Assembly: GCA_020137815.1 (NCBI GenBank) | Contig: CM035351.1 | Span: 8,928,001 to 8,992,000, forward strand | Length of the DNA stretch: 64,000 nt | Direction of reading: 5' to 3' | DNA from: Hormiphora californensis | Lineage: Eukaryota; Animalia; Ctenophora | Shown: in pieces, positions 8,201-56,570 of the stretch | Layout: each line of letters begins with the position of its first letter | Position numbering within the stretch: the stretch's first letter is position 1 | Notes under the pieces: model-generated | Database searches by the model: none | Told to the model about the DNA's origin: nothing | What the model saw: the letters and a program-made list of their open reading frames with translations, nothing else | Program-made: the position numbers and the translations under genes

Positions 8201-11200
8201 TGGTAACATTTTCTACTGGAGTTGTATTGCTAGATCAGCTGGACAACATTGGTCCCTGGTTTGCAAAGGAATTGGAAGATCGGGGCAATTATGCTACTAC
8301 GGCACTGTGACACATTCCCAAGACGAGTGGGTTGTGTATACCTCGAGAGACTTAGTAAGAGGTATTCAGCTACTCCAGATCATCTTGGGATGTATCACAG
8401 TCGGCCGCAGTAGCATGACTGAAGGGTGGGTGTAGCAATGACCAGTCTCTTGAGCAGGACAGAGAGCTGACAAACAAACACAAAGGAAACAAAAGTAGCA
8501 CGTGCAGGTTTACAAAGGGTGAGCACTACTGAAGGTGACTTGATAGTGCTCCTTTATCAAACACGCAATGGCAAAGTACAAAATTTCCCAAATTTGGCTA
8601 GAAACACTACCAAACCAACCCATCTAACCCCCCTCCTTTTCAGAGTTATCAGTGGCACTAGTGAGATCCCTCCTCGCCTCCATCTCCCACTTGTTGAGCC
8701 AACAAGACCCCGCTGTATGGTCGGAGGGTTCAGTACACCGAATGCTGGAATATCTTGTACAGTTTGTCTTTCATTCCAAACCGAAAGTGCGACACGCCGC
8801 TCAGAGGTCCCTGGCCAGCCTGTCCAAGAATGTTGCGACTGTGTGTAGTTTAGTTGTACAGAGCTGCACAGAAAAACTGGACGGTTACACAGGTGAGATA
8901 ACGCTTCGTATTTTATCCCGCAGTTATGCTATGGGCATTGACCTTTTTGAAAATGGGTTAGTGTTGGACAGGGGATATTATTAGAGCTAACACTCCAAAC
9001 ATCCCCCAGGTTCAAAAGAGGCCCAAGTGACACTTCACACGATCAGTTTCATCCGTTACATTCTCCCCCAAGCCTCGGAGGGAGAATTAAAACAAGGGAT
9101 GGAGAGCATTCTCCGTGTTATCGCTCTCAGACACACTAAAGTCACATCTGCCGCTCTCCAGGCCCTTGCTAGTGTGTGTAAACAACCTTCTACTGCCATG
9201 ACTGGACAGATGCAGGGACAAATCCTAATGGTATGTTATCTATAATGAGTTGTACAAGTAACTGTAATGTGACAGAAACACACAGTTCACAATAAATCCT
9301 GTTATTTTCAGAACCTCTTCTCCAGTAAGCCATCTAGTTTCGACCACCCCATTACAACTGTCTGGTTGGAGGCCCTGTCAGCCTGTTACACCGCACTGGC
9401 GACTCTGGAACCAAAACTGGGTCTTATCATGGCACACAACTTGTTCACGTTCTGCTCTGAAACCGTTCTATCCAAGAATCATGATGTAGTTCAGATATCT
9501 CTAGTGGTCATGGAGCAGTTTTTTAGTGAGAATATCTCACCCGCTCTAGAGTGCTATCAGGTATTGCAAATTATAAAACGTTTCAACTCCTGTATGAGAC
9601 GATATAAGCGGTTTTAAAACCGTAAAACACACCTGAACCTAATGGTGTTTATATTTCAGGCTGAGATTGAGGGAAAGAAGTCTACTCCTCTGGGTAAGGT
9701 TGTATCTACCCTGAAGACCATGTTAAAGCTCACCTATCAGAGTGTTTGGGATGTCGTATTACAGGTAATGTCACATCACATAGTGGACCCTTGAGTCTTG
9801 TCCCACACAAAGACACAGTTTGTGAGGTTGATGTCTGGAACGCGCGACCCCATTCTTGTGTGGAGTAGAATCATCCACATTGCTGCGCCGCGCAGCGTGG
9901 GAAAAAACACTCTTCACTCTGGCGTGGGAGATCTTTGTCGTGTTCTCCGACAGACATAACAAATAACATGACCGCCTGTTTCAGACAATTGGATCCCTGT
10001 TCCAGCAACTAGAACGACCAGCATCCTACATGATAGAGCCCCTGATCGCACCCCTCTTCATGATTAGGAACGCCCCTGACTTTGAGAACACCAACCTCTT
10101 CACAACTACAGCGGGACACCTGGTGAAACTAGTAGGAGGACCCCAACTCCTCTCTGTCTACCCTCTAACTTTGGAACAAGACGACGAAGTTGTAATCCCT
10201 AATGGATGGCTCCTACCCATACTACGGGATCACATCAGTCATTCGGAGTTGAAGTTCTTTGTTACCAACCTGGTCCCCGTTACATCCACCCTCCGAGCTA
10301 GAGAGGAGACGCTGAAACAGGAGAAGGGCATGGAGCTAGATTGGAGGGTGTGCTTCAACTTGGAATACCAAATATGGGCGCTACTTCCGAGCTTCTGTCG
10401 GCACCCAACTGACGTGGCTGAGTCATTTAGCATGATGGCGAAGACTCTTGGAGGCTTGATTTCATCTCGACCCGAGATTAGGGAACTACTCTGTAGTGCT
10501 CTTGTTACCCTGATAGGCACTGTGGAGGAGGGAGAGAGGGAAGTGTTGGCCAAGTTTTCTAAGAACTTCCTGCCTATTTTGTTCAACCTGTTCCTGACGG
10601 AGCCTAAAGAACACGATCCCCAAGGAAGCCTGTTAAAGATGCCATTGAATCGTACCTCTCTATATGTCCCAAAGACACCCTACACATCTTTTATGAAAAG
10701 GTACATAGAGAATAGAGATTGGGAACTGAGAAGTATACAAAAGATTGTGTAACCATGTGTTCGGTAGATCAATAAAAAGAGGACTTTCTTTGTCTAAACC
10801 CCATTGTCCCCCTCTGCAGATCCTAGCTAAGACTCAGGGAAGAGGGGATGTCAGATGAAGCCAAGAGGATGGTACTGGAACTCCTAGTAGCCATGATAGC
10901 CCACCTAGGAGAGGGAGATCTGACCACTACCTATGATATGGTGGTGCCATGGCTGGGAGACCCAGGAAACCCTATCAACCAGAAACGAGCTTATCAGGTA
11001 TAAGACTCATCACCTGGAGGCTACAAATCTCAAGCTCACTCAATAGTACACTCCTCCCCTTTACAAAACCTACGTCCCTGAAGAAATTATCAACTACCCT
11101 ATTTCACCATATTTAGATTCTCCTGGCGTTGTTGGTAGGCAAGACAGATGCCCATTCTGCCTTTGTATCCTCCCGACTAGAGGAGCTCCATACCCACCTA

Positions 11201-13682
11201 GTGGAGTCTCTGGTGCTAGCCCAGCCAGCTGCTAAGAAGCACAGGCTGAAGTGCTTGTTGGCTCTCGTTAGACAGCTCAAAGCAGAGAACTTCATTACCC
11301 AAACCTGTGAGTTGATGAACCTGTTCTTATAATTTCGACACAGGTAACAAAAACATCATTTCCGATCGGCTTACAAACTTAAAACTACGTCGTAGAAATT
11401 ATCAAACATTTCCACCTATTATATTCTCGTGTTCTTGTTGGTAGAAGGACCATGCATGATGATCCCCAGACTAGAGGAGGCTCCATCCACTGTCAGGAGT
11501 CCTTGGTTACACATCAGTAAGTAAGAAAGGGCAGCTGAAGGTTATCTCTCGAGTTGATCAGTCTCAAACAGGATATTTCACCTTACCCAGCTAGTACTGC
11601 TAGTTGTGCACTTCTTATGGTTCAACTATCATTGTGAGCAAGGACTACAGCACCTAATGCGAGCTATCGTTACGCGTTCATGGATATTACTAACTTTGGC
11701 TACCGGTATGTTTACAGATAGTCTTTTGAGAGCGCAATGAGAACGTTCACTTGCATAAGGTCTCACAGCCTTAGTCATCTACTATGTCTAATAGTATAAG
11801 GGAGTCAATGAGTGATACCTTAAGGATGCTCTGGTGAGCACTGATTCTACGATTGGCGGTAGGTTATTAAGCTAGACGAAAGTTCTATTTCAAATATAAA
11901 TGTTCCTCAAATACAAACTAAAAAGAGATTAGAGTTTACCTGACAGAGGAAGTATAACTTTCTCTCTGTCAATAATGAATTATGAGATAATTAATGTTTC
12001 TCACCCTATCCCTCCATTACAGAGCGACGTTGTTGTGCCTCAGTAAAATTGTATACGAGTACAACTCATATCTAGATGCGGATATTCTGGATCAAGTAGT
12101 TGAAATTGTGGCTGCTATGATGTCCTCTAAACACAAGGAAATACTGAAAGGTGTCCTCTCTTTCATCAAGGCAAGTTTACCTAACGCTACATGATATGAT
12201 TTGTAAATCAGCCATATTCTTGAAACAGTTTCATTTGTAACAGCCATGTTATCAGTACTTTCCTAACTAATTGAGAACCCTAATTACAGACATCTACTGG
12301 AGTGATAGCGTACCAGATCATGCAACCTCACATCAAGACGATATTGGATGCCCTAGACGCCTGGGATAAACCCACCAAACATCACTACAGGTTTGGAATG
12401 GGGGAATCAAAAAGGGGATGTATTTCTACTAGATAATAGCCAGATTCAGGCTGGCAGAGTGAGAGCACATATAATCGGCAAATCTCTAACCATCACCTCT
12501 TCCACAGAGCCAAGGTGCGAACTCTATTTGAGCGGTTACTACGTCGTTTCGGCTACGAGATGATCTACAAGCTGTGTGGTGAGGAGCACAAGAAGGTTGT
12601 GAACCACATTGTTAGGGAACAGCGCCGTGCCAAGGCCAAGATGGGAGTCAGGGATAGAGGGGATGAGAGTGAGGAGGATCAGGAGTTAGGTGATAGTGAG
12701 GACGAGGGGGGTATGGACGACTTCAAACAACTCAGGGGACGAGGATCCAGGAGTGAGGTAATGTGCTCTTTCGAGTTTCAATTGTATAGATATCTGATCA
12801 AAGGGAGGAATCTAGAAAATATCTGGCGAGGAACGGGCTTGAATTAACCAATAACAATTCACCCTCTCCCTCCCCAGCTGACCTCCAAGTTGGTAGAGGG
12901 TGACAACCCATTGGACTTCCTGGACTCAGCCATGATACCCAAGATTTACAAGGGCTCTAAAAAGGAACCCTGCTCTCTCCCTGAGAAGGATGGGAAGCTC
13001 ATCATCGAGGACCTGGCAGAGGTAACAACATGAACACTCTAGGGAGATGGGGAGGGGGTTCTGGGTAATTAACACGGGGAACATAGAGGGGAACGGGAGA
13101 GGGGGTTCGGGGGGTTCCTGATGAAAGCGGGAGTGTTTTAGAGATACGCTTTCGTTTTACATGTTTGGTTAACTTTATCATCACTATCCTCTCTTAGAAA
13201 ATCAAGGAAGCCCAGATGCTGGGAGAAGACACAATGGGAGAGGAGAAGGAGCCTGACTCAGAAGATGAAATCATCAAGGCTGCTGTTAATCCATTCGGTC
13301 GACCCAAGAAGGGAATCTACAGGTAGCTACAGATCTTGCTCAGTCTATCTATCAAGTTCTAGCAATGACAGATGTTAGTCAACTAAACAAGATGCTCAGT
13401 ATCTGTAAATTACTTTCTCTCAGGGACGTCAAGAAGAACCCGACTGGTGGTAGATCTGAGTCAAGTGGAGGAGGAGGAGCGGGCAAGTTCGCCTCCAAGA
13501 AGGCCTCTGGAGATATGAAGAAGAAGGGTAAACACGAGCCATTTGCATATGTGTCAATCAACCAAAAGAAGGGAAAGAAGAAGACTAGCGGTCAGTTTGA
13601 TAATCTTATCAAGGCAGGTAAGGCAGGAGTACAGAAGGGCTCCAAAGCCATGAGAAAAGCTCCTCGGAGTACCGGCAAGTGA
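5220..13682 (+). CDS. RRP12: RRP12-like HEAT-repeat ribosome biogenesis factor, many exons
   Basis: N-terminal KGKRWKRGEACVSNP..KHR; HSKPKVRHAAQ; WLLPILRDHI; QIWALLPSFC; KFSKNFLPILFNL; FERLLRRFGYE; C-terminal SKKASGDMKKKGKHEPFAYV. Region 11330-11940 is garbled. Confidence 0.93.
6452..7997. repeat. Tandem array of 10 units of about 155 bp, each internally palindromic, in an RRP12 intron
   Basis: Unit starts GAGGG(G/A)CAAA at about 6452, 6608, 6770, 6926, 7081, 7236, 7391, 7546, 7701 and 7857. Confidence 0.95.
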
Positions 13683-20044: not shown

Positions 20045-20129
<85 letters not shown>

Positions 20130-20246: not shown

Positions 20247-23200
20247 CTACAAACCAAGCTGACTACTGCAGCAAGAGGGGGGCTAGTGTGTGAGCCCATG
20301 AGTAGAGTGACAACACTAGACTTTACCGACAAAACAGACCGATAAAACAGACCGATATTTCAAAAAGCGGTGAGCAAACTCAATCTGAATCTTTTTGATA
20401 GTACCACAGTAGATTTGTAGAGATGGTATCTCCTTCCGGCTTGATCAACAGGGACAAAATGAAATTACGGTGCTTTTATTAAACGGAACAGTTTCGATGT
20501 CACAACATCTTCATCAGCCTCAAATTAATTTGTTTAAAGTAGTGTTGAAAAGTTTTCAAACTTTTCAACACTACTTTAAAAAAATTAATTTGAGGCTGAT
20601 GAAGATGTTGTGACATCGAAACTGTTCCGTTTAATAAAAACACCGTAGTTTCATTTTGTCCCTGTAGATCAAGCCGGAAGGAGATACCATCTCTACAAAC
20701 TATTATCATGCGGCTCATAAACAATTATCCGATACTTATCCTGTGTACCACAGTAGAGTATCAAAAAGAGTCAAACTACATCGATATGATAGACAAATTA
20801 ATGGATGCTAACCTTTTGATAATTCTGTTGACTGAACTGGCCCAAAGCCTCCTTGATGAATCTCCTCCCCCTCCTTTACTGCTCACACTCTCAGGAACTG
20901 TCTCCGGTGGAGGGCGACCCTTCGTAGTGGCTGTCCGACTCCTGAAAGGGTTCATGTTATGAGCACTATTTTTATAGGGTCTCGAGCTACCTTACAGAGC
21001 TATCTGACGAGGGCCGGGCTCGAACCGACAACCTCTGGGTTACGCCAGATATTTCTCAAATTTTCCTCCCTATTTAATCCTCAACAGATCTCATTCATAA
21101 TATGATACCCCCTTACCTCTTAGCAGAGGCATGTATCCTGTGTTCCTGTGACCCGTACAGCAGATCTGTTCTAGTGGTACTGGGTCTCTGTAGCACCCTG
21201 CTGTTCTGTTGTTTCCCCGATGTTACAGAGGAACGGGATGGGGCTGAGGGGCAGTCTACCTTCCCCCGAGTGAGCATTATGGACGCCAGGGCTTTCGATC
21301 GTTGTAGTAGGATCTGGAAAGATTGTTTGACATGATTATCGTTATCAGAAGTATGAACTCACTCTCAGATATTATCAAACGCCCTTGAATGTATAGCGAC
21401 TCAAATGTCGGCAGGTGAGTAGAACTTCGCTCCTAATAAAAGGCTGCAATAAAAGGCTGCAATAAAAGGCTGCAGAAAAAGGCTGCAGAAAAAGGCTGCA
21501 ATAAAAGGCTGCAGAAAAAGGCTGCAATAAAAGGCTGCAATAAAAGGCTGCAATAAAAGGCTGCAAGGTATCACGTATCCAACCAGACTAAAGCGGGAGA
21601 TAGACCGAATCGTCCTCCCCTAATAGTGTTTCGTATCACGTATCGGCTGTAAAGAGACCGAATCACCCTCCCCTAATTATAGTGATTCGTGTCACGTATC
21701 CAACTAGACCATAGGCGATAGAGAGAGCGAGATAGAGAGCGAGTACGAGTGAGAACTGAGAGAGTGAAAAATCAGAATCACGGTGTGGTATCACGTACCA
21801 TGGTATCCTCTAATGAAAAGTGGTTACCAATTGACAATGAGACCTCATCGGTCCCGATACGTGATTCTCTACCGCTATCCCACCGCTATGTATTTTCCAT
21901 TAGTCTTTCCGTATCGATCCACGATTCAGTAGAGGTACTACTACTACTACTACTCTGAGTGCCTGGGCTATCGCAAAGCGATATCGCCGGCACTGGAGAA
22001 GAGTCCCCCCGCCCTCTCCCCTCGCATGGAACTACCATCTGGCAGGTTCACAATATAACGGGAGATTTGGAGTGGGGCTCTTCTCGGGGTTGTTCTAGTC
22101 CTGTGTGGTTATTTTTTCCAGGAACGTTTATACTTTGATCTTGAACCACAGTTTCGTCTTCGTTTTCACTTAATCTTTGATACGGGATATGTGAGACCTA
22201 TCTGTCTGATTATGTTCAATTAGGTTAGAAGGCTAAACTAGCAAGGATTTGTTCTCAGTCCACAGTTTTGTTTAGTATGTATATATTGGTGGCGGGTGGG
22301 GTGGTTCGGGGTGGGTGGAGGCTAATAGGGCTACATATTTGGTTGAAAAAGGGAGATTCTACTTGAAGGGGAGTGAGAAAAATAGGGCTAGATATTTGGT
22401 TGAAAAAGGGAGATTCTACTTGAAGGGGAGTGAGAAAAATAGGGCTAGATATTTGGTTGAAAAAGGGAGATTCTACTTGAAGGGGAGTGAGAAAAATAGG
22501 GCTAGATATTTGGTTGAAAAAGGGAGATTCTACTTGAAGGGGAGTGAGAAAAATAGGGCTAGATATTTGGTTGAAAAAGGGAGATTCTACTTGAAGGGGA
22601 GTGAGAAAAATAGGGCTAGATATTTGGTTGAAAAAGGGAGATTCTACTTGAAGGGGAGTGAGAAAAATAGGGCTAGATATTTGGTTGAAAAAGGGAGATT
22701 CTACTTGAAGGGGAGTGAGAAAAATAGGGCTAGATATTTGGTTGAAAAAGGGAGATTCTACTTGAAGGGGAGTGAGAAAAATAGGGCTAGATATTTGGTT
22801 GAAAAAGGGAGATTCTACTTGAAGGGGAGTGAGAAAAATAGGGCTAGATATTTGGTTGAAAAAGGGAGATTCTACTTGAAGGGGAGTGAGAAAAATAGGG
22901 CTAGATATTTGGTTGAAAAAGGGAGATTCTACTTGAAGGGGAGTGAGAAAAATAGGGCTAGATATTTGGTTGAAAAAGGGAGATTCTACTTGAAGGGGAG
23001 TGAGAAAAATAGGGCTAGATATTTGGTTGAAAAAGGGAGATTCTACTTGAAGGGGAGTGAGAAAAATAGGGCTAGATATTTGGTTGAAAAAGGGAGATTC
23101 TACTTGAAGGGGAGTGAGAAAAATAGGGCTAGATATTTGGTTGAAAAAGGGAGATTCTACTTGAAGGGGAGTGAGAAAAATAGGGCTAGATATTTGGTTG

Positions 23201-25257
23201 AAAAAGGGAGATTCTACTTGAAGGGGAGTGAGAAAAATAGGGCTAGATATTTGGTTGAAAAAGGGAGATTCTACTTGAAGGGGAGTGAGAAAAATAGGGC
23301 TAGATATTTGGTTGAAAAAGGGAGATTCTACTTGAAGGGGAGTGAGAAAAATAGGGCTAGATATTTGGTTGAAAAAGGGAGATTCTACTTGAAGGGGAGT
23401 GAGAAAAATAGGGGTGGAATTGGGTTGAATTCTTTTATTGACATAATACCATGTAGAACATGTGTTTAGGTACCAGATATTATCTGTATAGCCATCTTAA
23501 TTCTTGGAGCAGCAAACAGTGGCCTTCTGAATTGCTACTGTCAGTAGAGGTAGTCAGTAACTACTGAGAGTGTTGGTCTAATGAGGTAGAAAATGGCCGA
23601 AATCTCGAGTTCGCTTTTCGTGATTTTAGCACTAGAGTCCGCTTACCGATCTATTGATTGAGCGTGTAGCACAATGAGTGCTACACGCACTCACAATATG
23701 ACAGGTGAACCACCCAACCACTTGGTTCACCTATCATAGTTTCTACCTCATTAGACCAACACTTTCAGTAGTTACTGACTACCTCTACTGAATCGTGGAT
23801 CGATACGGAAAGACTAATGGAGAATACATAGCGGTGGGATAGCGGTAGAGAATCACGTATCGGGACCGATGAGGTCTCATTGTCAATTGGTAACCACTTT
23901 TCATTAGAGGATACCTTGGTACGTGATACCACACCGTGATTCTGATTTTTCACTCTCTCAGTTCTCACTCGTACTCGCTCTCTATCTCGCTCTCTCTATC
24001 GCCTATGGTCTAGTTGGATACGTGACACGAATCACTATAATTAGGAGAGGGTGATTCGGTCTCTTTACAGCCGATACGTGATACGAAACACTATTAGGGG
24101 AAGACGATTCGGTCTATCCCCCGCTTTAGTCTGGTTGGATACGTGATACCTTGCAGCCTTTTATTGCAGCCTTTTATTGCAGCCTTTTATTGCAGCCTTT
24201 TTCTGCAGCCTTTTATTGCAGCCTTTTTCTGCAGCCTTTTATTGCAGCCTTTTATTGCAGCCTTTTATTAGGAGCGAAGTTCTACTCACCTGCCCAAATG
24301 TCCTAGTTACCTTTTCGTCTCTGGTTATCGCATTTCTGAAGGCTGTTTTCTCCCTGTCGATTGAAGTGAGTGTCTTAGCAAGTCTCTTATCTTCCTTAGT
24401 GTTGTATAGCTGGGCCAGTGTCTCACTGTTCCTGTTAACCGCCCTCACATTCACCGCGGTATAACTCTGAAATAGAGCGGTGTTAGGTACTTGTAGTGGT
24501 TCTTGCCAGACACTGACTGTACAACCTCGATGCCCGGTGCGAAGAGGACGGTCTTATATGAGACAAAGTGGTTCACACAGTACTGCTGTGTACTGTGTGA
24601 GCGGTGTTAGGTACTTAGTAGTGGTTCACAGTACTGTGTACGTGTGTTTTAGTTTTACACAGCACGATATATCCTACTTGACTCAAGATGTTAACAATTT
24701 TAACTGCCAAGTATTATAGATAAACTAAGGTCGTATGCAGCAGGTGAATAGTGTGACCATGATGATACTCATCTTGTGAGATACGAACAATGCTCATTTC
24801 ATACTGCAGTTAAATTGTGTCGGTGTGAGCTGAGAGGTATGCACTATGCGCCTCAAACCGGGCATTTAATGAGCTATGTAGTACTAAGCTAATAATGTGG
24901 TGGGGCCTTGTGAAACTAGTACCTGAGCAGAATCGTCCAGCTTCACTTGTTTATGGAAGGTTTTACAGAACATTCTAGTAATATCAAAATACACAACAGT
25001 GAGACACACACAAATATATGGGAACGATAAAAGTATAATATATATTTGCCTCTGTTGAGGGAGAGAGGGTACAGTGGGAGAGAGTGATAGAACATGTTAT
25101 AGAGAGAGCGAGAATATATTAAATACCGAATTGAGAGTGAATGATGGGTAGCCATGGTAACCCCCACTTCCTATCCCCCTTGTACCTGACTAGAGGTGGA
25201 GGAGGTGTGTCTTCGAGCCCTTTGAATGACCACAGACCGGGCCCGACGAAGTAGCAT
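20247..25257 (-). CDS. Small multi-exon gene of unknown function (MLLRRARSVV...SYTAVNVRAVNRNSETLAQLYNTKEDKRLAKTLTSIDREK...ILLQRSKAL...SRRLWASSVNRIIK)
   Basis: In-frame chain of GT-AG-bounded exons at about 25257-25186, 24466-24311, 21313-21116, 20941-20812 and 20265-20247. Its introns host the elements listed below. Confidence 0.55.
20551..20594 (+). other. Ctenophore spliced-leader exon sequence, processed copy (second copy on the - strand at 20519-20555)
   Basis: AGTTTTCAAACTTTTCAACACTACTTTAAAAAAATTAATTTGAG on +, and AAACTTTTCAACACTACTTTAAACAAATTAATTTGAG on -. Matches the Hormiphora/Pleurobrachia-type SL as I recall it. It is not followed by a GT donor, so it is not an SL RNA gene. Confidence 0.8.
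20595..20632 (+). ncRNA. Minimal type I hammerhead ribozyme core (mirror copy on the - strand at 20481-20518)
   Basis: CTGATGA (20596-20602), A, stem II GATGT-tgtg-ACATC, GAAAC (20618-20622), then TGTTCCGTT and AATAAA at 20633. Confidence 0.8.
21006..21046 (-). mobile_element. tRNA-derived fragment (T-arm/B box), probably a SINE head remnant
   Basis: Minus strand GTAACCCAGAGGTT-GTCGG-TTCGAGC-CCGGC-CCTCGTC. The 5' half of the tRNA is absent. Confidence 0.55.
21938..23540 (-). mobile_element. 5'-truncated non-LTR retroposon with a (TAG)n tail, inserted in the left TIR of the Merlin-like element
   Basis: 12-bp TSD TCAGTAGAGGTA at 21926-21937 and 23541-23552; (CTA)n at 21938. The minus strand begins with a short ORF end, VAIQKATVCCSKN*. 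Confidence 0.75.
22324..23413. repeat. 19 near-identical 57-bp tandem units inside the retroposon
   Basis: Unit AATAGGGCTAGATATTTGGTTGAAAAAGGGAGATTCTACTTGAAGGGGAGTGAGAAA. Only the first unit differs (one substitution). Confidence 0.98.
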
Positions 25258-54399: not shown

Positions 54400-56570
54400 G
54401 GGGGACAGCCCCCCAAATTTTTAAAAATTTTCTCCCCCTTTCTTCTTTTCTCCTCCCTCTCCCTCTTTTCTCCTCTCTCTTCTCTCCCCTTCTATCTCCC
54501 CTCTTTCCCCTAATGGGGGGAGGGGTAGGGCTTTAAAGAAAACGCGGGGGGGGTCATTGTTAAGGCCCTTTTTTCGGCTAAAATGCCATTTTCATACCCC
54601 TAAACAAGGAGTTAAAAAAAACGGTCCCCAAAACATCCCAAACACCACACACCACCCCCAGACCACCAAAATTTTAAAAAAAACAAAAAAAGGGGCCCCT
54701 ACAAAAACGACGGGGGGTTTACCTTACCACTGAAATACGGTTTACCCCTTTTAAACTTGGTCCCAAAACGTTTAAAATAAAAAAATTCCCCAAAACCATT
54801 AACCCCCATGGCCCAAACCCCTTTTTACTATCCCAATCCAAAAAGAGGAAATACTAAAATTGTCTTTGTTCTATGTTTGGGAACGGGTATAAAGGGACTT
54901 GTTCGAACGCGAGTTGGTCATTTTAAAAATTGGACGTGGCCGTTATCCTTTTATTAAGCCGAGTGGGGTTGCCCAAAGTGGATTCCCCCAAATTACACAT
55001 TTGCCACATAGAGACCCCGATGACTTGACTCAATCTTAAATCCCAAATTTTAAACAAGACCAACAATACTGTCTAGGGGTTTTGAAAAGATGGGAAGGTT
55101 TTTACAGCCTTTCCTTACCCGTTGATTTTGTGGGGTTTGATTTTAGGCTGGCCCCCTAGGCTAAAATTCCTGTTCCGAAAAACCCATTACCGATAAGCTC
55201 CCTTCTTTAAGGGATTATACCCTAAGGGGTAACCAGTAAACCAAATCAATGCTCCCCGACAATCCTATCAGGCTTTAGTTCCTTACCTCCGCTAATATTT
55301 ACACTGATACCAGCTCACACCGTTCTCCCGGGTTCCCTCCTATTTACCTCCTCAAACCCCATAGCCCGCCGCTTGCCATGGTTCTAACTTCTAAAAAATT
55401 TTTGGGTGACCATTTCATGAGTCCTCACCAGTTGTCCAAATTTCTCTTTTTGGGTGGGGGATTTGGAGTTCCTGTTGATAATGGGATCATTTGAGAAGTA
55501 CCCGGAACGGAACACGTGTTCCGGGTTTAAAAAATTAGTTTTCAGATATGTTTGCCCCCGGGGCTCCTTCTGTACAGGGGTTGGGGGGACCCCCGATGGT
55601 GATATGACAAAAAACCCCTATCCAAAAAAATTCACCGTGGGCCAAATTGAAGCTCCCCAAAAAATTTAATTCCAAGGGGACCGGAAGGAGTTTTAAAAGG
55701 TCAACAAAATCTTGAAAAAACCCTGGGCCCCCGCCAAAACCCCAAACCATCGTCAAAGAATTTTTTTCCGAATTGCCCGTGGGGTATCGCCCTTGGTAGC
55801 TTGAAAAAAGCAGGAAGTCAACGTTATGCTGCCACTGGGCCGGGGGTAACATTTCCCCCTCGGGATCCCCAAAACCTTTGAGACCCCCTTCCCCGATGTG
55901 CAAAAGATTCCTTCGGGGTCAGAGGGTTGGATTTCGTACAGTAGTTTCTAATAGAGGGGGGCCAGTTCCAAAAACGCGTCCAAACTTTCCCGGGCCGGTT
56001 CGGTTTCTGGGGGGCAAGGGGTATCCCTTAATGAATAGCCTTCCCTGGAAGAGTTATTCAAACTCCTAAGCTTTTGAGAAAGGGCGTCCGAATCTAACGA
56101 ATCCCCGCCACAGTAAGCCTACAATTTCCGTAAAAGGGGGAGCCAAACCCTTTTCTAATCGTAAAAAAAAGGCCCCCCTTGTACCCTGTACCCAACATGG
56201 TCGGCGGCGCACCTTAGCCTCGATGTCCTCCTTACTCAACTTGTGAATTTTGAAGAGCGGGTAGACATAAGGGGTCATCGCTCTGAATACCGGGGAGGTT
56301 ACCATATTGTCCTGGTGGTTGAGGCCAGTGATGAGTTTTTTGTCGAGGTTCTCCAACCTTCCTGCAGCGTTCTCTGCTCTTACAGTATCCTTGATTAGGG
56401 CCGTTGTCCTAGCCATATGGACCTCGACTGGTACCTCTAGCATCTGAAATACACTTTCATCCCTCAAGGCGGCTTCAACGGTTCCCAAAACTACGTCATA
56501 GTCGAGAATAAGGGTTGCTCCTCCCTTATCCGCCTTCGTTATGAACAGAACTTCTTCTTTCAATTTCTTC
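54400..56570 (-). mobile_element. 5'-truncated Penelope-like retroelement (RT plus probable C-terminal GIY-YIG endonuclease), heavily garbled below about 56200
   Basis: ITKADKGGATLILD and PYVYPLFKIHK are PLE N-terminal RT motifs. KKFFDDGLG at about 55760 resembles the RT catalytic motif. GQ..TRLNKR..GH-like text at about 54935-54980 resembles GIY-YIG. Confidence 0.8.

Follow-up and report, generated by a model that had tools for sequence, protein, structure and literature searches.

We analyzed a 64,000-nucleotide stretch of the genome of the ctenophore Hormiphora californensis (assembly GCA_020137815.1, contig CM035351.1, positions 8,928,001 to 8,992,000 of the forward strand), here called the window and numbered from its first letter. 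An earlier note on this DNA had described a spliced leader (SL) fused to a hammerhead ribozyme and inserted as a palindrome, and had read it as the retroposed copy of a trans-spliced RNA of a Penelope-like element (PLE). At this locus, 331 bp (20414 to 20744) are flanked on both sides by 13-bp direct repeats that are identical at 13 of 13 positions, and the 13-mer occurs only twice in the 64-kb window. The insert is made, as had been described, of two inverted arms. These measure 142 nucleotides each and are complementary at 138 of 142 positions, and the right arm extends 45 nucleotides further than the left (Table 1). In both arms, the terminal GAG of the leader abuts GCTGATGA without a GT, and the palindrome is centred on the leader's self-complementary 5' end. 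Neither further copies of the element or the leader nor a tandem copy of the hammerhead unit were found within the window.

The four mismatches between the arms appear to be private, two to the right arm (20581 and 20666) and two to the left (20640 and 20648), and probably reflect later mutation or errors in the consensus; both arms carry the minority alleles at 20669, 20671 and 20687. Given these shared alleles and apparently private differences, an origin of the arms from two different source loci found no support. The element ends without a poly(A), 106 nucleotides beyond the AATAAA. The longer arm does reach the ATG at 20708 that had been pointed out, which opens 12 codons and is a candidate start of an element open reading frame (ORF), but the first ATG past the leader is the one at 20599, which opens a 4-codon upstream ORF (uORF) inside the ribozyme core. 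This uORF complicates the earlier idea of a translatable SL-capped RNA. The inserted copy is probably inert.

The flanks hold an inverted repeat whose loop contains the duplication, an arrangement found at only 3 other loci of the window, and the empty site as reconstructed is predicted to fold at -10.3 kcal/mol. This single case, noticed post hoc, hints at recognition of symmetric half-sites or of a hairpin. Furthermore, the last bases of the element and the start of the right duplication (20740 to 20753) form a small hairpin with a 5-bp stem and a 3-nucleotide loop, which may be due to chance.

Table 1. Features of the insertion and its flanks, in window coordinates
Feature	Position	Strand	Basis
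Inverted repeat in flanks, left half, 15 nt, brackets the duplication	20386..20400	+	14/15 complementary
Left target-site duplication, 13 bp	20401..20413	+	Direct-repeat identity
Left inverted arm: SL, hammerhead core, AATAAA and body, without tail	20414..20555	-	Arm comparison
Predicted minimal type I hammerhead, left arm	20485..20519	-	Pattern search
Spliced leader, left arm	20519..20555	-	37/37 to the 3' 37 nt of the published leader
Palindrome centre, self-complementary SL 5' end, 5-nt arms and 2-nt middle	20551..20562	.	Sequence
Spliced leader, right arm; ends in GAG, without GT donor	20551..20594	+	40/41 over the last 41 nt
Right arm, paired part	20558..20699	+	Arm comparison
Predicted minimal type I hammerhead, right arm	20594..20628	+	Pattern and feature comparison with PMC4209133
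4-codon uORF (MKML) inside the ribozyme	20599..20613	+	Translation
AATAAA just 3' of the predicted cut	20633..20638	+	Sequence
Right-only tail, 45 nt; ATG at 20708; family 3' end at 20744	20700..20744	+	Arm comparison, contigs
Right target-site duplication, 13 bp	20745..20757	+	Identity, contigs
Inverted repeat in flanks, right half, 15 nt	20759..20773	+	14/15 complementary

The spliced leader and the predicted hammerhead

The published trans-spliced leader of H. californensis is 44 nucleotides long, is present on 56% of full-length reads and occurs 718 times in the genome (PMC8527503). Compared by eye, the left arm matches the last 37 nucleotides of this leader at 37 of 37 positions and the right arm matches the last 41 at 40 of 41, the window leader having one T more at its 5' end than the published form. 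Public contigs were aligned to the right arm and right flank for 4 of the 17 runs listed, namely, X1 and X5 (two samples of organism A) and X7 (organism B), all DNA-like, and X17 (organism A), whose RNA nature is a guess; individual contig pieces are the 32 listed of 2008. Contigs of X17 match 20557 to 20594 or 20595 near their starts, with 2 to 5 differences, and then continue into unlike long sequences. Both the similarity to the published leader and these SL-bearing contigs bear out the original identification of the 44-mer as the ctenophore SL.

The bases following the leader are GC in both arms, in agreement with the leader-core junction without a GT donor that had been noted. Because both arms continue with GC and not GT, these leader copies are, on sequence grounds, not SL RNA genes. 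In contrast, 13 contigs of X7 diverge after 20595, and their consensus yields GTAAG, as is expected of SL genes. As a separate observation, 17 contigs each in X5 and X7 diverge past the end of the leader at 20594 into mixed sequence that does not start with G, and these genomes may commonly harbour retrocopies of various SL-tagged RNAs.

Directly adjoining the leader is a predicted minimal type I hammerhead, in which C3 corresponds to 20596. An extra A (20603) precedes a helix II of 5 bp (20604 to 20608 with 20613 to 20617), which is followed by GAAA (20618 to 20621), the C-U-G of helix III (20622 to 20624) and a GUU triplet; the predicted cut falls between 20626 and 20627, and helix I has 2 bp. 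The core elements C3-A9, G12-A15.1 and U16.1-H17 are all present, as is helix II. A pattern composed of CTGANGA, a perfect stem of 4 to 8 bp and GAAA occurs once per strand in the window, the expectation being 0.01 per 128 kb (200 base shuffles). Three traits of single motifs that lay outside the search descriptor used have been reported for minimal hammerheads of metazoan PLEs, namely, an additional base separating positions 9 and 10.1, pairing of G10.1 with C11.1 and a palindromic 15.2-loop-16.2 (PMC4209133). All three are present here, as A20603, G20604-C20617 and the C-U-G of 20622 to 20624. Furthermore, none of the 33 positions from 20595 to 20627 is variable among the listed contig variants, versus 14 of the 33 positions from 20628 to 20660 (Fisher P = 2e-5, or 2e-4 if one more variant row is allowed); these counts refer to the variants listed, with 13 indel rows and 1 substitution row lying outside them, and do not include differences near contig ends.

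Two G-C pairs of helix I, G20595-C20627 and G20594-C20628, are kept in the SL-joined form, because G20595 is exonic and the leader's last G replaces that of the acceptor. The junction does lie in helix I, but the statement that splicing removes the 5' strand of this stem was overstated, since these two pairs remain. The competing fates that the earlier note saw in trans-splicing and self-cleavage stay hypothetical. In PLE minimal hammerheads, helix I has 4 to 5 bp, and it has 2 bp in Drosophila virilis (PMC4209133). The predicted SL-core pairing was rejected as evidence for specific masking of the core by the SL, as it was equalled by shuffled leaders: the share of these at or below the observed helix II probability was 0.14, 0.24 and 0.48 for three constructs (300 shuffles each).

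A dispersed family and its likely kinship with Penelope

Many contigs of X1, X5 and X7, divergent in sequence, cover the body of the element (20595 to 20744), and one variant at 20666 is common to 27, 31 and 11 contigs of these runs, respectively. In both organisms, this body is a dispersed repeat whose copies share a 3' end at 20744. This end is fixed, with 7 contigs of X5 diverging behind it and four of the listed pieces stopping there (X1 record 5, X5 record 20 and X7 records 28 and 29); X7 record 27 stops at 20697, near the end of the left arm (20699 equivalent). At the CpG at 20711 and 20712, copies of the family carry C>T and G>A changes in X1, X5 and X7 alike, which would fit methylation-driven decay.

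Three 5' forms were found in DNA: an SL-less copy, an SL-joined copy and the palindrome of the window. The SL-less copy (X1 record 1, 777 nucleotides) matches from 20593, which is AG/G, and has 436 nucleotides of non-SL sequence upstream, from which we infer a genuine acceptor AG before its core. The SL-joined copy (X7 record 25) holds a second SL/hammerhead junction in DNA, with 87 nucleotides more upstream. The unspliced source copies anticipated by the earlier note thus have a candidate in the SL-less copy matching from AG/G, but their attachment to a PLE reverse transcriptase (RT) ORF was found in none of the searches, and the anticipated SL/core junction in RNA was not seen in the one RNA-like contig set (X17).

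At the insertion site itself, X5 record 21 (402 nucleotides) matches from 20745 and has 275 nucleotides before this point; as an empty allele, it would start at 20126, the exact end of a (TC)n tract. X7 record 30 likewise stops at 20744. Judging from these contigs, an empty allele of the site is likely to exist in X5 and X7. The shares of sampled words were 0.46 for X1, the best of the runs, and 0.33 for X5, and flank-only words, at 0.32 of the query, come close to the share for X5. No cover of 20760 to 20991 was seen in X1, which may be a filter effect.

PLE insertions have been described as carrying an inverted copy at the 5' end that overlaps at a short palindrome, duplications of 8 to 10 bp and a one-sided tail of 30 to 40 bp with the first codons (PMC3846280, PMC8557442). 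The insertion studied here resembles them in its head-to-head inverted 5' copy, 13/13 duplication, one-sided tail, fixed internal 3' end and lack of poly(A), and by this analogy the element is likely a PLE.

The window also contains a decayed RT-like ORF on the minus strand (55429 to 56560), which has a DKG motif and starts at a (GA)n tract. This fragment, at about 55.4 to 56.6 kb, has 48 relatives of up to about 1000 amino acids, the best at 69% identity and one of them named from Mnemiopsis leidyi, and is likely a PLE of another family. Below about 56200, the DNA seems either of low quality or heavily decayed. A scan of viral contigs with an SL 20-mer gave 0 matches.

Proposed mechanism and its rivals

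We consider it fairly probable that the insertion is the retroposed 5' end, that is, the pseudo-long terminal repeat (pLTR) plus tail, of a PLE RNA that had been SL-trans-spliced inside helix I of the predicted hammerhead. The element would be transcribed from upstream, and the spliceosome would add the capped SL at AG/G, as the trans-splicing counterpart of the 5' untranslated region (UTR) intron of D. virilis Penelope, which ends at helix I. Keeping only a 2-bp helix I, the spliced RNA would have escaped self-cleavage; the template RNA appears to have been uncut, because the DNA copy continues across the site of the predicted cut. A PLE RT-GIY-YIG protein supplied from elsewhere would nick both target strands 13 bp apart, and each 3' end would prime complementary DNA (cDNA) synthesis at one of two internal starts that delimit the tail, 20744 and about 20699. 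The two cDNAs would extend to the cap, and their ends would anneal through the self-complementary 5' end of the SL, giving the head-to-head palindrome.

The last steps could have occurred in two ways. In an Anolis PLE, both strands are cut and extended, two internal RT starts bound the tail, a dimer is predicted and uncleaved RNA is the main substrate (PMC11167929). This behaviour suggests twin priming of two cDNAs here, toward which we lean slightly; the predicted duplex of two SL cDNA ends has -6.5 kcal/mol versus -0.8 for the single hairpin. The same sequence would arise if one cDNA folded back on itself at this SL hairpin, and we put this route somewhat short of an even chance. SL hairpins are known to self-prime cDNA in vitro (PMC9984361). 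The differences between the arms do not separate the two routes, because the minority alleles are shared and the private differences number two per arm.

Several results weigh against retroposition of a trans-spliced PLE RNA. The tail is 45 nucleotides long, versus 30 to 40 in published PLEs. PLEs are reported to keep introns, a typical and not a defining trait, and the window copy has a spliced junction, while one SL-less copy also exists. None of the 48 relatives of the other PLE-like fragment starts like the 12-residue tail peptide, a protein search with this peptide and the read-through product gave 0 of 3 candidates at E<=10 (a weak search, with 12 informative residues), and scans of Joint Genome Institute metagenomes with a core 22-mer and a tail 22-mer gave 0 each. 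X1 record 1 is, by its 15 differences in 100 nucleotides, another subfamily, and its AG match could be due to chance (1 in 16). As for the minimal type I hammerhead with AATAAA that had been reported, the pattern and the PLE traits speak for it, but a search of Rfam found no hammerhead model at E<=10 (44 matches; 3 for a single arm), leaving it a predicted ribozyme; the matches for the insert were generic microRNA-hairpin scores below gathering thresholds, owing to the palindrome. Folding z-scores were not significant, and one X7 contig is apparently one base short in loop II. Metazoan minimal hammerheads are described as weak and as dimer- or protein-assisted (PMC4209133, PMC11167929). X17 had no element cover, which in one small contig set is not proof of no expression. 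Finally, the duplication and the likely empty allele favor a genuine genomic insertion, as had been assumed, but among the 32 listed of 2008 pieces none spans 20744/20745, the right junction of the filled site.

The occurrence of the same SL/hammerhead junction in the DNA of two organisms (the window and X7 record 25), together with its absence from the RNA-like X17, would suit a history in which the SL was captured once, long ago, by a retroposed copy that became a chimeric non-autonomous master. The palindrome would descend from this master, perhaps through an antisense or read-through transcript that primed itself, and trans-splicing would be historical; antisense self-priming has indeed been proposed for head-to-head PLE junctions (PMC3846280). 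We find such a history unlikely, given that an SL-less copy matching from AG/G exists (X1 record 1) and that the junction lies exactly at the 3' end of the SL and the palindrome centre exactly at its 5' end, as expected of a capped RNA. Even a single capture still requires that one spliced sense RNA was reverse-transcribed, although it would weaken the case for a sense template in the palindrome step. The PLE label could also be wrong, the insert representing instead a host 5' UTR or a non-coding hammerhead family, retrozyme-like or of another kind, that was mobilized by a long interspersed nuclear element. No linked PLE ORF emerged from the protein and metagenome searches, and the 17 contigs each of X5 and X7 that exit the SL at 20594 into mixed sequence are in line with this. 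The absence of poly(A), the fixed internal 3' end, the head-to-head arms and the one-sided tail nevertheless fit PLEs, and the tandem array that defines non-LTR retrozymes is missing from the window; these retrozymes have themselves been proposed to derive from pLTRs (bioRxiv 10.64898/2026.07.22.740005). We judge a non-PLE origin decidedly improbable.

An artefact, in which a fold-back cDNA or read was built into the assembly, seems to us very improbable. The self-complementarity of the SL gives hairpin cDNA artefacts in vitro (PMC9984361), neither the junction of the window copy nor, in the context of this copy, its 20666 allele is carried by any of the listed contigs, the sampled words stay below one half in every run (0.46 at best) and the sequence near 55 to 56 kb looks low in quality. 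Set against this are the perfect duplication of 13 bp, made at a site for which another sample shows a likely empty allele, the coincidence of the right end with the natural 3' end of the family, the unequal length of the arms and their 4 mismatches (two apparently private to either arm) and the second SL/core junction in the DNA of organism B.

Retroposition of a trans-spliced PLE RNA can be extended to a whole cycle, a scheme that we offer tentatively and regard as doubtful. A ctenophore Penelope family would use the host SL, helix I trans-splicing both capping the RNA and disarming the hammerhead, and a dimeric RT-endonuclease would cut inverted half-sites, prime two cDNAs, one at either tail end, and join them via the self-complementary leader. 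If this were true, the leader would prove that sense, spliced RNA underlies the head-to-head inversions of PLEs, and a large number of the "genomic SL copies" of ctenophores would be retro-tagged mobile RNAs.

Known systems and other features of the window

The closest precedent for the junction is D. virilis Penelope, in which the 3' end of an intron maps to the 5' end of helix I and the spliced and unspliced hammerheads differ (Cervera and de la Pena 2014, PMC4209133). The two share a minimal type I hammerhead in a terminal repeat, an additional base ahead of helix II, and a helix I that has 2 bp and a splice junction at its 5' strand. They differ in that the upstream exon here is the host SL and in that the DNA holds the spliced form, whereas the D. 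virilis copies are described as keeping the intron. Penelope of Adineta vaga (Arkhipova et al. 2013, PMC3846280) likewise has a head-to-head inverted repeat overlapping at a short palindrome, target-site duplications (of 8 to 10 bp) and a one-sided tail with the first codons; unlike in A. vaga, no ORF lies between the arms here and the junction palindrome is the 5' end of the host SL. Poseidon PAc of Anolis (Frangieh et al. 2024, PMC11167929) resembles our element in its fixed internal 3' ends bounding the tail, uncleaved template and hammerhead near the ORF start, but involves no trans-splicing, and the Poseidon ORF starts at helix II, where our element has a 4-codon uORF.

Outside PLEs, SL-tagged retrogenes of dinoflagellates (PMC6050394, PMC5585692, PMC12014239) also show a post-transcriptionally added leader in DNA that marks an RNA intermediate; these are host genes, whereas here the tagged sequence is a ribozyme repeat, in an animal, with a palindrome centred on the leader. 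Trypanosome L1Tc (PMC3383444) is likewise a retroelement with a 5' self-cleaving ribozyme (predicted here) in an SL-trans-splicing host, but its ribozyme is hepatitis delta virus-like, its transcripts are described as lacking the SL and it belongs to another element class. Non-LTR retrozymes (bioRxiv 10.64898/2026.07.22.740005) share the short non-coding unit, the type I hammerhead (predicted here) and a proposed pLTR origin, and form tandem arrays, in contrast to the inverted pair with duplication and tail found here. The literature searched, which consisted of titles and abstract starts with few subscription papers, showed neither an SL-capped PLE nor a retrocopy joining SL and hammerhead. 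The parts are known, namely, the helix I splice site in the fly and SL-tagged retrogenes in dinoflagellates, and their combination was not found in that literature; the claim of an undescribed SL-hammerhead retroelement stands to this extent, but its novelty is reduced by the published intron end at helix I of D. virilis (PMC4209133).

For the head-to-head inversions of PLEs, an antisense template has been argued for and favored, an unspliced sense one not being excluded there, and "leader" and "trans-splic" have 0 occurrences in that paper (PMC3846280). The significance of intron retention in PLEs has been called unknown (PMC8557442). Since an SL can be added only to sense RNA after splicing, SL-tagged copies label the template strand, its processing state and the position of the cap, and counting them in a ctenophore genome would be a direct test of the inversion models. 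The splice site in helix I is an intron end in the fly and likely a trans-splice site here, an analogy that suggests an old coupling of splicing with ribozyme state. Of the 718 leader copies counted in the H. californensis genome, some may be retrocopies instead of SL genes.

The remaining observations concern other parts of the window. At about 21001 to 21100 lies another repeat of high depth in X1, X5 and X7, with opposite-strand joints at 21001 and 21060. It includes a stretch (near 21015 to 21030) that we take to be similar to a transfer RNA (tRNA) B box; ARAGORN called no tRNA at about 21001 to 21100. A search of the PDB with P0001 gave nothing significant. On the plus strand, RRP12 exons lie within 9967 to 13682, the first ORF matching PF08161 at E 8e-48. 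Finally, 21410 to 21937 and 23780 to 24294 form a 528-bp inverted pair, 96.6% identical and with 13-nucleotide tandem units near its ends, which encloses a minisatellite at about 22255 to 23496 and, from its structure, is likely a foldback-type DNA transposon.

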